Below, piece after piece: positions 23,543-26,500 of a stretch of DNA of 52,936 bases. The position numbers and the translations under genes are program-made. This stretch comes from Escherichia phage vB_EcoM_PiR, in sequence record OM313461; one strand, given 5' to 3'. The notes beneath the pieces were generated by a model, which was not told where the DNA came from, made no database searches, and saw nothing but the letters and a program-made list of their open reading frames with translations. Within the stretch, counting starts at the first letter, position 1. Each line of letters opens with the position of its first letter.

Positions 23543-24085
23543 ATGACTAAGCATAAGGTGTTCCGTAACTTTACCATGTACCATCCCGAGGTAACAGAAG
23601 AGAACGAGAACATTGTAAATGCTGGTGCAATCTTCCTCAAGGATGAGGAAGGTCGCGACTGGTACAATCTCGCAAAAGAGTTCGCTGTCAAATACGAAGG
23701 CGCAACGTTCTTGCAGGTAGATAAGAACGGAGTTGTAATTGCGGCACATACCGACCCAACTATGTTCCATCCTGTGGGTTGCGATATGGTAGTAACATAC
23801 GACCCGCCTTTCAACATCTTCGAGACTGTTGGCGAATGGCTGTTCGACGGTAAAGAGTTTACGCTTAACGCACCAATGATGAAGGAGATTGCTCGTGAGC
23901 GTAAAGAACAAGCTCTGTCCATCGCTTCGACCAAGGTCAGTGTTTTACGTGACACAGTTGATAGTGGCAATGCTACCGATGAAGAAAAAGAGCTATTTGC
24001 TAAATGGCGTGATTACAGGATTGCTGTCAATCGTCTTGACATTAACCTTGGTTCCGCTATGGTTGTTCCACCTATGCCGGAGTAA
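23543..24085 (+). CDS. tail fibre assembly protein (paralog 1)
   Basis: paralogous to 24089-24592 (shared N-terminal region NFTxYxPxxTxE...DW..LAKE); position after fibre gene. Confidence 0.5.
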   Translation: MTKHKVFRNFTMYHPEVTEENENIVNAGAIFLKDEEGRDWYNLAKEFAVKYEGATFLQVDKNGVVIAAHTDPTMFHPVGCDMVVTYDPPFNIFETVGEWLFDGKEFTLNAPMMKEIARERKEQALSIASTKVSVLRDTVDSGNATDEEKELFAKWRDYRIAVNRLDINLGSAMVVPPMPE

Positions 24086-24088
24086 ACC

Positions 24089-24592
24089 ATGCAACTGTCA
24101 TTTTTCAACTTTACAGAATACAACCCACAAAGGACGGCGGAGACACTTCCGCTGATTAAGCAAGGCGTTGTATTCATCAAAGATAACAATGGTAATGACT
24201 GGCGTAAGCTGGCTAAAGAGCTGGCTAAGAATAAAGAGCTGGTTCATTATATTGTTGTGGACAAGTACAATGCTGTTGCCGCGTATGCTAACGATCCTAC
24301 GCTACTGTTTCCTGTTAATTGCGATTTGCATATTGTTGAGTCTGTCCCTGCTGCTAAGTTTGCGGATTGCTATTACGAATGGTCATACGTTAATGGCAAG
24401 TTTGTTAAGCACTCGGAACTGCAGAAGGTGATTGCAGAAGAGCGCCTGCATGAAGAACAGGCTTGGGTTGAAGAGCAACTCGATACTGAAGAGGATGAAG
24501 AACGTATCATCGCTTTGCATAAATTCCGTGCTGATTTGATGTTGCTTGTAATGTCAGATGTGCCGCATATTGACTGGCCTGTACGACCGTAA
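24089..24592 (+). CDS. tail fibre assembly protein (paralog 2)
   Basis: paralog of preceding ORF. Confidence 0.5.
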   Translation: MQLSFFNFTEYNPQRTAETLPLIKQGVVFIKDNNGNDWRKLAKELAKNKELVHYIVVDKYNAVAAYANDPTLLFPVNCDLHIVESVPAAKFADCYYEWSYVNGKFVKHSELQKVIAEERLHEEQAWVEEQLDTEEDEERIIALHKFRADLMLLVMSDVPHIDWPVRP

Positions 24593-24599
24593 CTAATTG

Positions 24600-24640
24600 C
24601 TACCAGCAAGCTTGTGCAGTTGCTGGTAGCGTTTCTTTTA
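24600..24640 (+). terminator. rho-independent terminator
   Basis: perfect 10-bp stem CTACCAGCAA/TTGCTGGTAG, 10-nt loop, then T-rich GTTTCTTTT. Confidence 0.65.
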
Positions 24641-24651
24641 CGCTTGAGTCG

Positions 24652-24660
24652 TGCTATAAT
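24652..24660 (+). promoter_or_regulatory. extended -10 promoter element TGCTATAAT
   Basis: TGnTATAAT at 24652-24660 upstream of lysis cassette; no good -35. Confidence 0.4.
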
Positions 24661-24694
24661 CCACTCTGGGTATACAATAAACCGGAGATATGGG

Positions 24695-24955
24695 ATGTTT
24701 GACTACAACGACAAGTCTTCCCTTATTGGCCAGTTTGTGGCTTGGGTAACAATAACAGTAAGTACTTTATCACTAAGTGATTGGGGTACTCTTATCGGTA
24801 TACTCAGTTCCTTGGTGATGCTGATTGTTGTTACATATAACCAAACACGGCGAACCAAAATTATGTCGGATTATTACAATCGTAAGAAGCCGATAGAGGA
24901 TGAAGTCGCGTCGAAAGAAGAGGTGTTACGTGAGTCTGAAATCAGCAGCGACTAA
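24695..24955 (+). CDS. holin (two-TMD, pinholin-like)
   Basis: 86 aa with two hydrophobic segments and charged C-terminus; ATG 24695 with GGAGA SD; track start 24614 is GTG inside the terminator stem. Confidence 0.6.
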   Translation: MFDYNDKSSLIGQFVAWVTITVSTLSLSDWGTLIGILSSLVMLIVVTYNQTRRTKIMSDYYNRKKPIEDEVASKEEVLRESEISSD

Positions 24956-24968
24956 AGGAGGTTGTAGC

Positions 24969-25475
24969 GTGCTCGCTATCATCGGGCTTGTATTGTCGAT
25001 GACAAGTACGCATGTACGTACTAATAAAGAAGGTCTTGAAATAATCGGTAATGCAGAAGGTTGTATGCGCAACCCGTATGTATGCCCTACTGGTTATTTA
25101 ACAGTTGGCATTGGTAGCCGCATCTACAGCGATGAGCCCGCTGTACGGCGCGAAGGCCTGACAGACCAGGAGATTGCTGACCGCTGGGTCAAGAATATAC
25201 AAGAAGCAGAAAAGTGTGTTAACGACTGGTTCCACGGTAAAGATATGAACACTAACCAGTTCAGCGCTATGACTTCAATGGTATTCAACCATGGTTGCAC
25301 TAGACTCCGTAAGAACAAGGATGGTTCACCTACCAAAATATATACTGCTGCCCGTAAACAAAACTGGACTGAAATGTGTAACAGCATAACTGACTGGGAT
25401 ATGGGTGGTAAGTACAGGGGCTTGACAATACGTAAGCAAAAGGAAAAAGCGTTATGTCTAAAACCGGTGCAATAA
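24969..25475 (+). CDS. SAR endolysin (T4-lysozyme-like muramidase with N-terminal signal-anchor-release domain)
   Basis: GTG 24969 seven nt after AAGGAGG; N-terminal hydrophobic LAIIGLVLSMTS followed by EGLEIIGNAEGC...TGYLTVGIG and MVFNHG lysozyme-like motifs. Confidence 0.7.
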   Translation: MLAIIGLVLSMTSTHVRTNKEGLEIIGNAEGCMRNPYVCPTGYLTVGIGSRIYSDEPAVRREGLTDQEIADRWVKNIQEAEKCVNDWFHGKDMNTNQFSAMTSMVFNHGCTRLRKNKDGSPTKIYTAARKQNWTEMCNSITDWDMGGKYRGLTIRKQKEKALCLKPVQ

Positions 25476-25783
25476 TTGCAGTTATTCTCGGCCTCGCCAT
25501 TGTGTTCCTGGCTTTGTGGGTACGTGAGCTGAAAGGTGATATTATCGACCGTGACGGTATAATCAAACAGCTTAACAAGACTAATGGCGAGTTGTCCGCT
25601 ACTAATCAAACGCTGATTAACTCTGTAAAGGATGAACGTGAGGCTTCAGCCAAACGCGCTAGTAAGATAGCTGAACTTGAACAACAACTGCGTGATAAGA
25701 AGGGTAAATATGACGAAGCGACAAAATATGATTCGTGCGCTAATACTGTTGCTCCTTCTGCCGTTCTTGAACTCATGCGCTGA
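25454..25783 (+). CDS. i-spanin (Rz-like)
   Basis: N-terminal transmembrane segment then charged coiled-coil periplasmic domain; follows endolysin. Confidence 0.6.
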   Translation: MSKTGAIIAVILGLAIVFLALWVRELKGDIIDRDGIIKQLNKTNGELSATNQTLINSVKDEREASAKRASKIAELEQQLRDKKGKYDEATKYDSCANTVAPSAVLELMR

Positions 25784-25985
25784 TAAGCCTGAAGTTGTTT
25801 ATGTTGACAGGGTAGTCAAGGTTTATCCGCCTGGTGCGTACATGGTTAAATGCCATAAACCTGAATTAACAGGTAATACCTGGAAGGCAATAGGTCAGTT
25901 AGCTATTGAACGTGGAACAGCTCTTGATGATTGTGCAGACAAGATGGACAGCATAATTAACTGGAGTAACAAAGGGGCCGAGTGA
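25710..25985 (+). CDS. o-spanin (Rz1-like lipoprotein)
   Basis: ATG 25710 with AAGGG SD; signal peptide LILLLLLPFLNSC with lipobox-like Cys; overlaps i-spanin 3' end in another frame. Confidence 0.55.
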   Translation: MTKRQNMIRALILLLLLPFLNSCADKPEVVYVDRVVKVYPPGAYMVKCHKPELTGNTWKAIGQLAIERGTALDDCADKMDSIINWSNKGAE

Positions 25986-26002
25986 TGGCCCCTTTATTTA
26001 TT
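25971..26002. terminator. bidirectional terminator between convergent late (+) and replication (-) units
   Basis: stem GGGGCC/GGCCCC (25974-25979/25987-25992) with 7-nt loop, A-run upstream and TTTATTTATT downstream. Confidence 0.6.
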
Positions 26003-26225
26003 AGCGTTTTCCTTTCAGCTCGTTATACTGCGCACATGCAGCACACAGCACTGTACCGGGTAAAAGCTGACGTCGTTTTTCTTCAATGTCTTCCCCACAC
26101 TGGTAGCACGTCAGCGGGCTTACTCCTGTGTATCTTACTCGGTTCGATAGCGCTGCGTCCCGGGCAACTTGTTCAGCTTCAGAAGCCATATCATTAATGT
26201 CCGATGTGCGCGTAGTCTCAATCAT
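26001..26225 (-). CDS. TraR/DksA-family C4 zinc-finger protein
   Basis: CYQCGEDIEEKRRQLLPGTVLCAAC matches the C-x2-C-x3-I-x3-R-x4-P-x4-C-x2-C signature; GAGGG SD. Confidence 0.8.
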   Translation of the reverse strand: MIETTRTSDINDMASEAEQVARDAALSNRVRYTGVSPLTCYQCGEDIEEKRRQLLPGTVLCAACAQYNELKGKR

Positions 26226-26500
26226 TATTTTCCCTCTTCTTCACAATACAGGGTTTCTAATTCGTCGCATAGCTGTTGCGTCCAGCAATCATCCTCACCA
26301 CGTATCTGGAAGCACAGCACAGGAATATCCTGTCGTAAAATATCGCTCTTGTAAATCTTTTTGGCAACAGCTTCTGGTTCTTCCTGGAATATCTTCATAA
26401 ACCAGTCCAGGCCTGACGTGCAGCCTGAGGCGTCTAGTATCTCCTTCGCCCTTAACTTAAGCGTTTCATCTACTTCATACTCTAAACCTATCTTAGACAT
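26225..26500 (-). CDS. hypothetical protein
   Basis: ATG start, acidic 91-aa protein. Confidence 0.5.
   Translation of the reverse strand: MSKIGLEYEVDETLKLRAKEILDASGCTSGLDWFMKIFQEEPEAVAKKIYKSDILRQDIPVLCFQIRGEDDCWTQQLCDELETLYCEEEGK

Follow-up and report, generated by a model that had tools for sequence, protein, structure and literature searches.

The lysis cassette of Escherichia phage vB_EcoM_PiR: a predicted P1 Lyz-type SAR endolysin and the position of its start codon

Where does the endolysin of Escherichia phage vB_EcoM_PiR begin, and what do its first residues imply for the way in which the enzyme is exported and activated? Public records hold four differing starts for this endolysin and four differing starts for the o-spanin encoded with it. 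The window considered here, the whole stretch of 52,936 nucleotides in sequence record OM313461, is the genome of a phage of the Rosemountvirus type (a BP63-like myovirus). Its cassette region is 95-99.5% identical to that of more than 40 Rosemountvirus genomes, in the records of which the genes are labelled holin, endolysin or SAR-endolysin, and Rz-like spanin. All four lysis genes, encoding holin, SAR endolysin, i-spanin and o-spanin, are present. The cassette is already known, being annotated in GenBank relatives and published for the sister-genus phage S144, where the four-gene content is identical (PMC7432712) and the supplement likens the endolysin to the P1 SAR-endolysin (PMC7432712). 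An initial annotation of the DNA had proposed a cassette of holin, SAR endolysin and two-component spanin, in agreement with both of these sources. Collectively the evidence makes it very likely that these genes make up a full lysis cassette of the SAR-endolysin type, as in phages of Gram-negative bacteria, expressed as one transcript from a predicted extended -10 promoter, and that its endolysin is a GH24 lysozyme of the disulfide-caged SAR type closely homologous to P1 Lyz. Throughout, hydropathy refers to the Kyte-Doolittle scale (KD), and motifs such as the lipobox were sought by regular expressions.

The cassette is preceded by an intrinsic terminator located 3' of the tail-fibre-assembly gene (24599..24639, + strand), which was identified by folding and alignment and consists of a 13-bp interrupted stem (24599-24630) followed by GTTTCTTTT. 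It folds with a free energy of -21 kcal/mol (z -3.9), a stability equalled by 0 of 200 shuffled sequences, and a hairpin with a T-run occurs at this position in 9/9 aligned loci from three phage clades. The stems differ in sequence between the clades with compensating changes, such that the structure is kept. Downstream of it lies the extended -10 element TGcTATAAT (TGCTATAAT; 24652..24660, + strand), recognised by its conservation: GCTATAATCC is unchanged in all nine loci of the three clades and the TG is retained in eight of them, within a spacer that is otherwise divergent. Across the window TGNTATAAT occurs seven times, against 2.1 +/- 1.3 expected. Both elements had been proposed in the initial annotation as insulating the cassette, and both are borne out by this conservation. 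No recognisable -35 hexamer accompanies the element at 24652-24660, which we infer to act as a promoter and which sits directly 3' of the terminator of the tail-fibre operon. Neither the -35-less promoter nor the upstream terminator was picked up by a simple scan for promoters and terminators, in the case of the terminator because its interrupted stem falls outside the scanner's simple stem-loop rule; they came to light through folding and alignment.

The first gene of the cassette encodes a holin of 86 aa (24695..24955, + strand) and is preceded by the Shine-Dalgarno sequence GGAG (24685-24688). The protein matches phrog_1350 'holin' (2e-15) and phrog_20 (1.5e-4). By hydropathy it has uncharged stretches at residues 8-28 and 30-51, as expected from the two transmembrane segments originally described, with TMD1 placed at residues 8-28 and TMD2 at residues 30-48, followed by a charged C-terminal tail, and it is predicted to be a class II holin with two transmembrane domains; elsewhere one has been counted for BP63 (by TMHMM) and two for S144. 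The holin has no Pfam or NCBIfam match above threshold, and it falls outside Phage_holin_2_1 (PF04971), for which the best family member was found at E 0.019, short of the cutoff. A word-index search recovered seven proteins, every one from within the same phage group, and a profile searched exhaustively against 1.8 billion representatives yielded only four. On the strength of its remote matches, the holin can be related, at a distance, to HP1/P21-S holin superfamily II; it lies under the Pfam thresholds of those families.

The description 'pinholin-like' derives from the topology of the protein, the neighbouring SAR endolysin and this weak remote similarity, and assignment as a pinholin is plausible. 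It is also quite possible, if somewhat short of probable, that the protein is a canonical large-hole holin which, as LydA does for P1 Lyz, would free the SAR endolysin through gross permeabilisation of the membrane. Indeed, the SAR endolysin of P1 operates with a canonical holin (PMC9025707), the present holin scores below the PF04971 threshold and reaches a probability of just 5% against S21 68 in hhalign, a search for a dual-start or antiholin motif in it found none, and its TMD1 (mean KD 1.27) exceeds that of S21 (0.52) in hydrophobicity. Nevertheless, TMD1 of this two-TMD protein is weakly hydrophobic, with 48% Gly/Ala/Ser/Thr, the N-terminus is acidic, and the holin gene adjoins and overlaps that of a SAR endolysin. 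Furthermore, there are weak PHROG cross-matches with S21 68 in both directions, BLASTP aligns the two proteins over 54 aa (35% identity, E 7e-4), and the profile search reaches PF16080/PF04971 members at E 1.2e-5 and 3.8e-4 that themselves adjoin SAR-type lysozymes. Taken together, a pinholin is slightly favoured over a large-hole holin.

The endolysin gene follows (24930..25475, + strand, 181 aa if read from the GTG at 24930). The lysozyme-like motifs noticed initially correspond to a match to PF00959 (Phage_lysozyme) at E 6.4e-20 (72.2 bits; cutoff 22.3). The protein also matches P1 Lyz (1XJT) at E 2.4e-42, in an alignment that extends into the SAR region, to Lyz residue 5. In the PDB, an AF2 model of the endolysin (pLDDT 89) best matches P1 Lyz in its active form (1XJT; 174 columns), and Foldseek matches of the model comprise 1XJT and the R21, P22 and T4 lysozymes. 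The catalytic motif E-x8-(D/C)-x5-T is found as Glu43 (25056-25058), Cys52 (25083-25085) and Thr58 (25101-25103), all on the + strand, as are Cys12 (24963-24965) and Cys45 (25062-25064). Among 95 homologues, E43, C45 and C52 are invariant, and Cys12 and the catalytic threonine are each present in 94. C12, C45 and C52 align with three corresponding cysteines of P1 Lyz, which we take to be C13, C44 and C51.

The position of the start codon determines whether Cys12 belongs to the protein at all. The initial annotation began the gene at the GTG at 24969..24971 (+ strand), on account of the strong AAGGAGG ahead of it, and this is also the start in most Rosemountvirus records. The AAGGAGG is indeed present, at 24955-24961 with a spacing of 7 nt, but it is improbable that the endolysin is translated mainly from GTG 24969. 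The most likely start is GTG 24930, which lies inside the holin gene, 39 bases 5' of GTG 24969, and is preceded by the Shine-Dalgarno sequence GAGGTG (24920-24925). Comparison between clades points the same way. The codon equivalent to 24930 is ATG in fHy-Eco03, SOI901 and CHIN23, only four codons past a stop, and in the sister clades it is either ATG or the sole available start codon; across clades this conserved start is preceded by GAGGTG or GGGAG. Starting here, the endolysin gene shares 26 nt with the 3' end of the holin gene, and this overlap is the most conserved DNA of the region, with both reading frames conserved.

It remains to ask whether the endolysin could begin at GTG 24969 as a protein of 168 aa, with a short hydrophobic N-terminus that still serves as a SAR anchor. 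In its favour are the perfect AAGGAGG at close range, the absence of any overlap between the holin and endolysin genes, and its adoption in the records of BP63 (GenBank and RefSeq), IntR, nenneke, PEA2-3 and SE4 and in a 'Listeria phage' record. However, a product starting here retains only 14 uncharged N-terminal residues, loses the positive charge at its N-terminus and lacks the SAR Cys that is almost universal among homologues. The SAR-domain Cys is reportedly the activator of P1 Lyz. Nor are the codon and its Shine-Dalgarno sequence conserved: the 24969-equivalent is GTA in S144, which has no start codon at this position, and GTT in fHy-Eco03 and CHIN23, and the counterpart of AAGGAGG in other clades is AAGGTGG or AAGCTGG. 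In the present phage the AAGGAGG encodes Lys9-Gly10-Gly11, and it is a single synonymous difference from S144, in a Gly codon, that creates the Shine-Dalgarno sequence. By contrast, the residues SLKS(A/T)ATK, which lie 5' of the 24969 start, are conserved as protein between clades that are ~70% identical in DNA. An endolysin that begins at GTG 24969 is therefore unlikely.

Two further start codons found in individual records were considered and rejected. ATG 24900, which is in frame in Rosemountviruses and gives the 191-aa form of the KE24 record, has as its sole Shine-Dalgarno candidate a GAGG that abuts the ATG; the codon is absent in SE4, and in S144 its equivalent is followed by a stop codon. 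ATG 24999, used in the JEP7 record, was rejected because it would remove the hydrophobic segment entirely.

Some initiation may take place at GTG 24969 in addition to that at GTG 24930, since its Shine-Dalgarno sequence is the better of the two. A genuine dual start in Rosemountviruses, with the full SAR form made from GTG 24930 and a truncated isoform from GTG 24969, nonetheless seems quite unlikely. If it did occur, the isoform, having neither Cys12 nor a working anchor, would be cytoplasmic, uncaged and active in a reducing milieu, and would need holin holes for its exit; alternatively, it could regulate the SAR form. Such an arrangement would be the endolysin equivalent of the dual-start motif of holin and antiholin. 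The two products would differ at their predicted N-termini, (f)Met-Ser-Leu-Lys from 24930 and Met-Leu-Ala-Ile-Ile from 24969, and the peptide GGCSVLAIIGLVLSMTSTHVR would mark the former, being absent from the latter.

Read from GTG 24930, the endolysin begins with a region that carries lysines at positions 4 and 9, followed by the SAR segment G10-T27 (24957-25010, + strand), GGCSVLAIIGLVLSMTST, an 18-aa stretch with 50% G/A/S/T and a mean KD of 1.67. The combination that defines a SAR domain, basic residues followed by a weakly hydrophobic, G/A/S/T-rich transmembrane domain, is found with this start only. The SAR-like N-terminus of the initial annotation thus holds for GTG 24930 and fails for the GTG from which it had been read, where the Cys and the lysines are lost. 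Consistent with this, all intact homologues have at least eight residues and at least two Lys/Arg N-terminal to the SAR Cys. The segment is short, its 18 uncharged residues comparing with 24 in P1 Lyz, and on inspection of the sequence the small residues SMTST behind it could suit signal peptidase; it could thus be argued that the endolysin carries a cleavable Sec signal peptide at its N-terminus and becomes a soluble periplasmic enzyme that undergoes no anchoring or release. This is very unlikely, since in the h-region there are a Cys invariant in the family and the conserved motif CSVxAIIGLV, neither of which would be expected in a signal peptide that is discarded. In addition, residues 14-24 form a confident helix packed against the body in the AF2 model, and the matched structure of active P1 Lyz keeps the same segment. 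By homology, the SAR segment is predicted to remain uncleaved.

The remaining two genes encode the spanins. The i-spanin (109 aa; 25454..25783, + strand) was recognised by its match to phrog_214 'Rz-like spanin' (5.6e-14), by hydropathy and by its orthologues. Its gene shares 22 nt with the 3' end of the endolysin gene. The protein has an N-terminal TMD at residues 4-23 (mean KD 2.67), a periplasmic domain that is helical and charged, and Cys95 as its lone periplasmic cysteine, and its score against PF10828 (DUF2570) is 25.0 bits, 1.6 bits short of the 26.6 cutoff. The o-spanin lipoprotein precursor (91 aa; 25710..25985, + strand) matches PF23793 LysC at 1.4e-19 (70.2 bits; cutoff 27) and phrog_456 at 5.6e-22. 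NCBIfam gave no matches for either spanin. An out-of-frame lipoprotein gene had been proposed for the o-spanin from the outset, and a lipobox, LNSC (Cys23), is indeed found behind the signal peptide MTKRQNMIRALILLLLLPFLNS; it is conserved across all clades, the +2 residue being Ala and not Asp. Two periplasmic cysteines, Cys48 and Cys75, follow. The start at ATG 25710, with the Shine-Dalgarno sequence GAAGGG, is conserved in all clades. Of the other starts, the second ATG, at 25728, is disfavoured by its absence in SE4, and TTG 25767 would cut off the signal peptide.

The o-spanin gene lies in the +1 frame relative to the i-spanin gene, shares 74 nt with it and continues for 202 nt past its stop (25783). 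The initial annotation had called the spanins overlapping in its title and the o-spanin embedded in its text. Only the first description holds, because a gene that starts at 25710 and ends at 25985, beyond the i-spanin stop, does not have the embedded (lambda-type) architecture. By the published definitions of spanin gene architectures (PMC6139136), the predicted genes form a two-component pair of the overlapped kind. A bidirectional terminator between the cassette and a convergent DksA-like gene (25971..26005, both strands) was detected by scan and folding, with free energies of -17.5 kcal/mol for the + strand fold and -19.8 kcal/mol for that of the - strand (z -4.2), and is annotated on both strands in the BP63 record. 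The o-spanin stop codon falls within the loop of this terminator.

P1 Lyz and phage 21 serve as models from which a plausible course of lysis can be outlined. The endolysin would be exported by Sec and stay inactive, tethered to the inner membrane through its SAR domain, the active-site Cys52 being caged in a Cys45-Cys52 disulfide. The holin would meanwhile build up and, on triggering, collapse the membrane potential, whereupon the SAR domain would exit the bilayer. Cys12 would then attack the Cys45-Cys52 disulfide and free Cys52, and the endolysin would refold with the SAR helix packed onto its body. Following degradation of the murein, the spanin complex, released from the murein mesh, would fuse the inner and outer membranes.

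The biology is that of a textbook SAR-endolysin cassette, from a genus of Salmonella and E. coli phages that are candidates for therapy and of which many genomes have been sequenced, and the value of the analysis lies mainly in the correction of annotation. The endolysin start that records give most often, used in the RefSeq record for BP63 too, deletes the portion of the protein that bears the export and activation signals. Cloning of the annotated 168-aa 'endolysin' for use as an enzybiotic would yield a truncated protein without the Cys expected to uncage the active site. For lysis genes, Kongari et al. (2018) described a bias of gene callers against overlapping starts, and the probably miscalled endolysin start is a clear example of this bias.

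Among the closest known relatives is P1 Lyz (PDB 1XJT, 1XJU), a SAR endolysin activated by disulfide isomerisation, with which the present endolysin shares ~46-50% identity over its full length, including the SAR region. The two have in common the E-x8-C-x5-T motif, a Cys at Glu+2, the SAR Cys and four more conserved Cys, and the predicted fold matches the active form (TM 0.81, AF2 model). They differ in the length of the SAR segment (18 versus 24 uncharged residues) and in the n-region, which here has two separated Lys. Gene organisation differs too: here holin, endolysin and spanin genes form a compact cassette in which that of the endolysin overlaps that of the holin, whereas in P1 the lyz gene has no linkage to lydA/lydB and lydD comes next downstream (PMC9025707).

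In gene order, in its predicted two-TMD holin with a weakly hydrophobic TMD1 and in the pairing of that holin with a SAR endolysin, the cassette resembles that of phage 21 (S21 68/R21, PF04971). TMD2 likewise has a small-residue face, IGILSSLV compared with IGVLGSLV in S21. However, the similarity to S21 68 is sub-threshold, and the Met-Lys-x-Met dual start is absent from the present holin. The endolysins also belong to different types: R21-type endolysins have Asp in the catalytic triad, whereas the present enzyme is of the P1 disulfide-caged type and only 18% identical to the R21 structure (3HDE). The spanins recall P2 LysB/LysC, in that the o-spanin belongs to PF23793 and its gene opens within that of the i-spanin, in the +1 frame, and runs past the end of the latter; the i-spanin is DUF2570-like, though just under the gathering score.

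A further counterpart is found in S144 (Loughboroughvirus; PMC7432712), the cassette of which is gene-for-gene orthologous at ~74% DNA identity. It has a class II holin, an endolysin of 181 aa whose gene shares 26 nt with that of the holin, an i-spanin, an o-spanin read in the +1 frame and the same hairpins on its flanks. Unlike the Rosemountviruses, S144 has neither the internal AAGGAGG-GTG site nor the upstream in-frame ATG, the two features that are the source of the annotation confusion in Rosemountviruses.

Every element that the initial annotation had assigned to the lysis cassette was found in the window. The cassette is ordinary and has been annotated before: public records of its genes already carry holin, endolysin and Rz-like spanin labels ("SAR-endolysin" in two of them), and the sister genus version is published, the orthologous cassette of S144 being described as a class II holin, endolysin, i-spanin and +1-frame o-spanin, with the likeness of the endolysin to the P1 SAR-endolysin remarked in the supplement (PMC7432712). 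More than 40 complete genomes of Rosemountvirus, the genus of BP63-like myoviruses with Salmonella and E. coli as hosts, share 24550-26050 at 95-99.5% identity, the nearest relative over the cassette region being vB_EcoM_IntR (99.5%), and identity to Loughboroughvirus (S144, ZCSE2, SE4) and the fHy-Eco03/Erwinia SOI901 clade is about 70-76%. The sole useful outcome of the analysis is a correction of start codons.

Comparison across these clades places the main endolysin start, very probably, at GTG 24930, giving a protein of 181 residues that begins MSLKSAATKGGCSV. The initial annotation had preferred GTG 24969, as do six of the nine Rosemountvirus records inspected, because AAGGAGG precedes it, and here the comparative evidence favours the upstream codon. 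AAGGAGG is merely part of the codons for Lys9-Gly10-Gly11 (numbered from GTG 24930) and reads AAGGTGG or AAGCTGG in other clades. The product from GTG 24969 would begin MLAIIGLVLSMTST and would carry 14 uncharged residues, with neither a basic n-region nor Cys12; all intact homologues have at least eight residues and at least two Lys/Arg before the conserved Cys. In fHy-Eco03, SOI901 and one metagenomic relative the codon equivalent to 24930 is ATG, with an in-frame stop four codons before it. In S144 it is the sole start codon 5' of the hydrophobic segment, the 24969-equivalent being GTA and the 24900-equivalent ATG being followed by TAG. A GAGGTG at 24920-25, whose GAGG core ends at 24923, 6 nt before GTG 24930, is common to the BP63 and S144 clades, and the ATG clade has GGGAG instead. 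The 26-nt holin/endolysin overlap (GTGAGTCTGAAATCAGCAGCGACTAA) is the most conserved DNA of the region and is conserved in both frames (ES-x-I-x-SD in the holin, (M/V)SLKS(A/T)ATK in the endolysin); immediately 5' of it the holin tail exists in two unrelated versions. Some initiation may occur at GTG 24969, and a functional dual start is most improbable. The 24930-equivalent start is already used in the LPSEYT, S144, S1, fHy-Eco03 and SOI901 records, KE24 has ATG 24900 and JEP7 ATG 24999. Records of near-identical phages give four endolysin starts (24900, 24930, 24969 and 24999), and the one in RefSeq BP63 drops the SAR cysteine.

The spanin genes follow. The i-spanin (25454-25783, + strand, 109 aa) has a strongly hydrophobic N-terminal transmembrane domain (residues 4-23), a charged helical remainder and a single Cys close to the C-terminus; phrog_214 is matched (5.6e-14), and the cutoff for DUF2570 is missed by 1.6 bits. 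The best o-spanin start is ATG 25710, preceded by a GAAGGG Shine-Dalgarno and kept in all clades; ATG 25728 is disfavoured, being missing in SE4. The precursor reads MTKRQNMIRALILLLLLPFLNS-C and contains the lipobox to be expected of the proposed lipoprotein, LNSC, with an Ala at +2 that fits outer-membrane sorting. Two more periplasmic Cys are conserved across clades, and PF23793 (LysC) is clearly matched (70.2 bits). Public records hold four o-spanin starts (25710, 25728, 25767 and 25842), of which TTG 25767 (BP63, including RefSeq, and IntR) deletes the signal peptide. The gene lies in the +1 frame, overlaps the i-spanin gene by 74 nt and continues for 202 nt beyond the i-spanin stop. As Kongari et al. 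2018 (PMC6139136) define these terms, the architecture is overlapped, as in P2 LysB/LysC, and different from the embedded architecture of lambda. The pair had been termed both overlapping and embedded; the former holds, whereas the latter does not, given the 202-nt extension.

The proposed upstream terminator is borne out by folding statistics and by stem variation: its + strand hairpin (24599-24630, followed by GTTTCTTTT) lies 3' of the second tail-fibre-assembly gene, which stops at 24592, and has a dG of -21 kcal/mol (z -3.9; 0/200 shuffles fold equally well). Nine aligned loci representing three clades keep it with varied stems (GCTACCAGCAA/TTGCTGGTAGC, GATGCCAGCAA/TTGCTGGCA, GCCTGCTC/GAGCAGGC and GCCCGCTC/GAGCGGGC), which indicates structural conservation. 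The extended -10 element is likewise present. Twenty bases 3' of the terminator, GCTATAATCC is unchanged in all nine loci while the spacer around it varies, and the TG is retained in eight; a -35 element is absent ahead of it, which is why a simple promoter scan missed it. This would be the promoter of the cassette. The extended -10 sequence TGNTATAAT occurs seven times in the window (23490, 24652, 31398, 34527, 39279, 40843 and 46803) against 2.1 +/- 1.3 expected, a count reached in 0/100 shuffles, and four of the sites directly precede minus-strand (replication-side) genes. This phage may depend on host promoters of the -35-independent kind, a class that could also drive the lysis cassette in place of read-through from the tail operon alone. 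At the other end, scanning and folding locate a GC-rich hairpin (25971-25995, annotated as a terminator on both strands in BP63) whose loop contains the stop codon of the o-spanin; it ends the cassette and faces a convergent DksA-like gene. Two tandem tail-fibre-assembly (chaperone) genes (23543-24085 and 24089-24592, the second matching phrog_136 at 2.6e-30) adjoin the cassette upstream and may be paralogues for alternative fibres.

The holin (24695-24955, + strand, 86 aa, GGAG 6 nt before the ATG) has two uncharged stretches that fit the two transmembrane segments claimed for it, one at residues 8-28 (48% Gly/Ala/Ser/Thr, mean Kyte-Doolittle 1.27) and one at 30-51, divided by Asp29 and followed by a tail that is basic, then acidic. 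It matches phrog_1350 ("holin", 2e-15) and phrog_20 (1.5e-4), and nothing above threshold in Pfam or NCBIfam. For comparison we used what we take to be the sequence of S21 68, the phage 21 pinholin; its matches to PHROG holins at 1e-32 show that it is a real holin sequence, with a strong match to phrog_20 and a weak one to phrog_1350 (E 0.0028). BLASTP aligned the two over 54 residues (35% identity, E 7e-4), and hhalign gave 5% probability only. The family is small, with seven proteins in a word-index search and only three outsiders when 1.8 billion representatives were searched exhaustively with a profile. Two of the three (E 1.2e-5 and 3.8e-4; loci L011, 2501-3230, and L012, 2501-3122) match PF16080 (HP1 holin family) above threshold, and also PF04971 (P21 holin S), and each shares 17 nt with the downstream gene, which encodes a lysozyme bearing a SAR-like N-terminus. 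One lies in a P2-like prophage, its lysozyme belonging to the same CSVxAIIG family as the window endolysin, while the second comes from a T7-like contig, so the holin/SAR-endolysin pair appears to move as a module among unrelated phages. The protein belongs to holin superfamily II as a divergent member; SAR endolysins are the habitual partners of that superfamily. The proposed pinholin-like character is reasonable, although pinhole formation is a matter of function that sequence cannot settle; the P1 SAR endolysin can operate with either kind of holin (PMC9025707).

Several public records invite comment. Escherichia phage JEP7 (MT764207) is exactly as long as the window (52,936 bp) and has its ORFs at the same coordinates; over 24200-26400 they differ at 105/2201 positions, mostly third codon positions and without indels, and the window is a distinct isolate or else a recombinant patch. 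'Listeria phage 220426122051' (PP583539.1, stated host Listeria monocytogenes) is a Rosemountvirus, 96.9% identical, and its Gram-negative lysis cassette, including an outer-membrane lipoprotein spanin, renders the host label doubtful. In fHy-Eco03 the holin, endolysin and i-spanin orthologues are tagged 'virion associated' (LC-MS/MS), and the S144 protein table gives peptide counts for the endolysin and both spanins (PMC7432712); these are likeliest membrane debris carried over in lysates and not structural.

The endolysin itself is closely homologous to P1 Lyz. The claimed SAR-like N-terminus and lysozyme motifs are upheld by PF00959 and by a phmmer alignment to P1 Lyz (PDB 1XJT; E 2.4e-42) that begins at Lyz residue 5 and spans the SAR segment. 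An AlphaFold2 model (52-sequence alignment, pLDDT 89) packs N-terminal helix 14-24 confidently against the body, and its top PDB match is active-form P1 Lyz (TM 0.81, 174 columns, 46% identity). The motif is Glu43-x8-Cys52-x5-Thr58, with Cys45 at Glu+2 and Cys12 within the hydrophobic segment; Glu43, Cys45 and Cys52 occur in all 95 homologues and Cys12 in 94, the exception being a truncated gene call.

What these data show is the gene content, the motifs, the homology and the conservation of the regulatory elements; the lysis pathway would, if it resembles those of P1 and phage 21, run as follows. Transcription from the extended -10 promoter would yield all four proteins from the tightly overlapped, probably translationally coupled genes, and Sec would export the endolysin, which would build up as an inactive, disulfide-caged, membrane-tethered enzyme. 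Triggering of the holin would depolarise the membrane, the SAR domain would leave it, Cys12 would uncage Cys52 and murein would be degraded, after which the i-spanin/o-spanin complex would fuse the inner and outer membranes. In P1 Lyz, a Cys44-Cys51 disulfide reportedly cages the active-site Cys until it is isomerised by Cys13 of the released SAR domain (Xu et al. 2005, Science); the equivalent pair in the window endolysin is Cys45-Cys52, and Cys12 sits in its hydrophobic segment as Cys13 does in the SAR domain of P1 Lyz.
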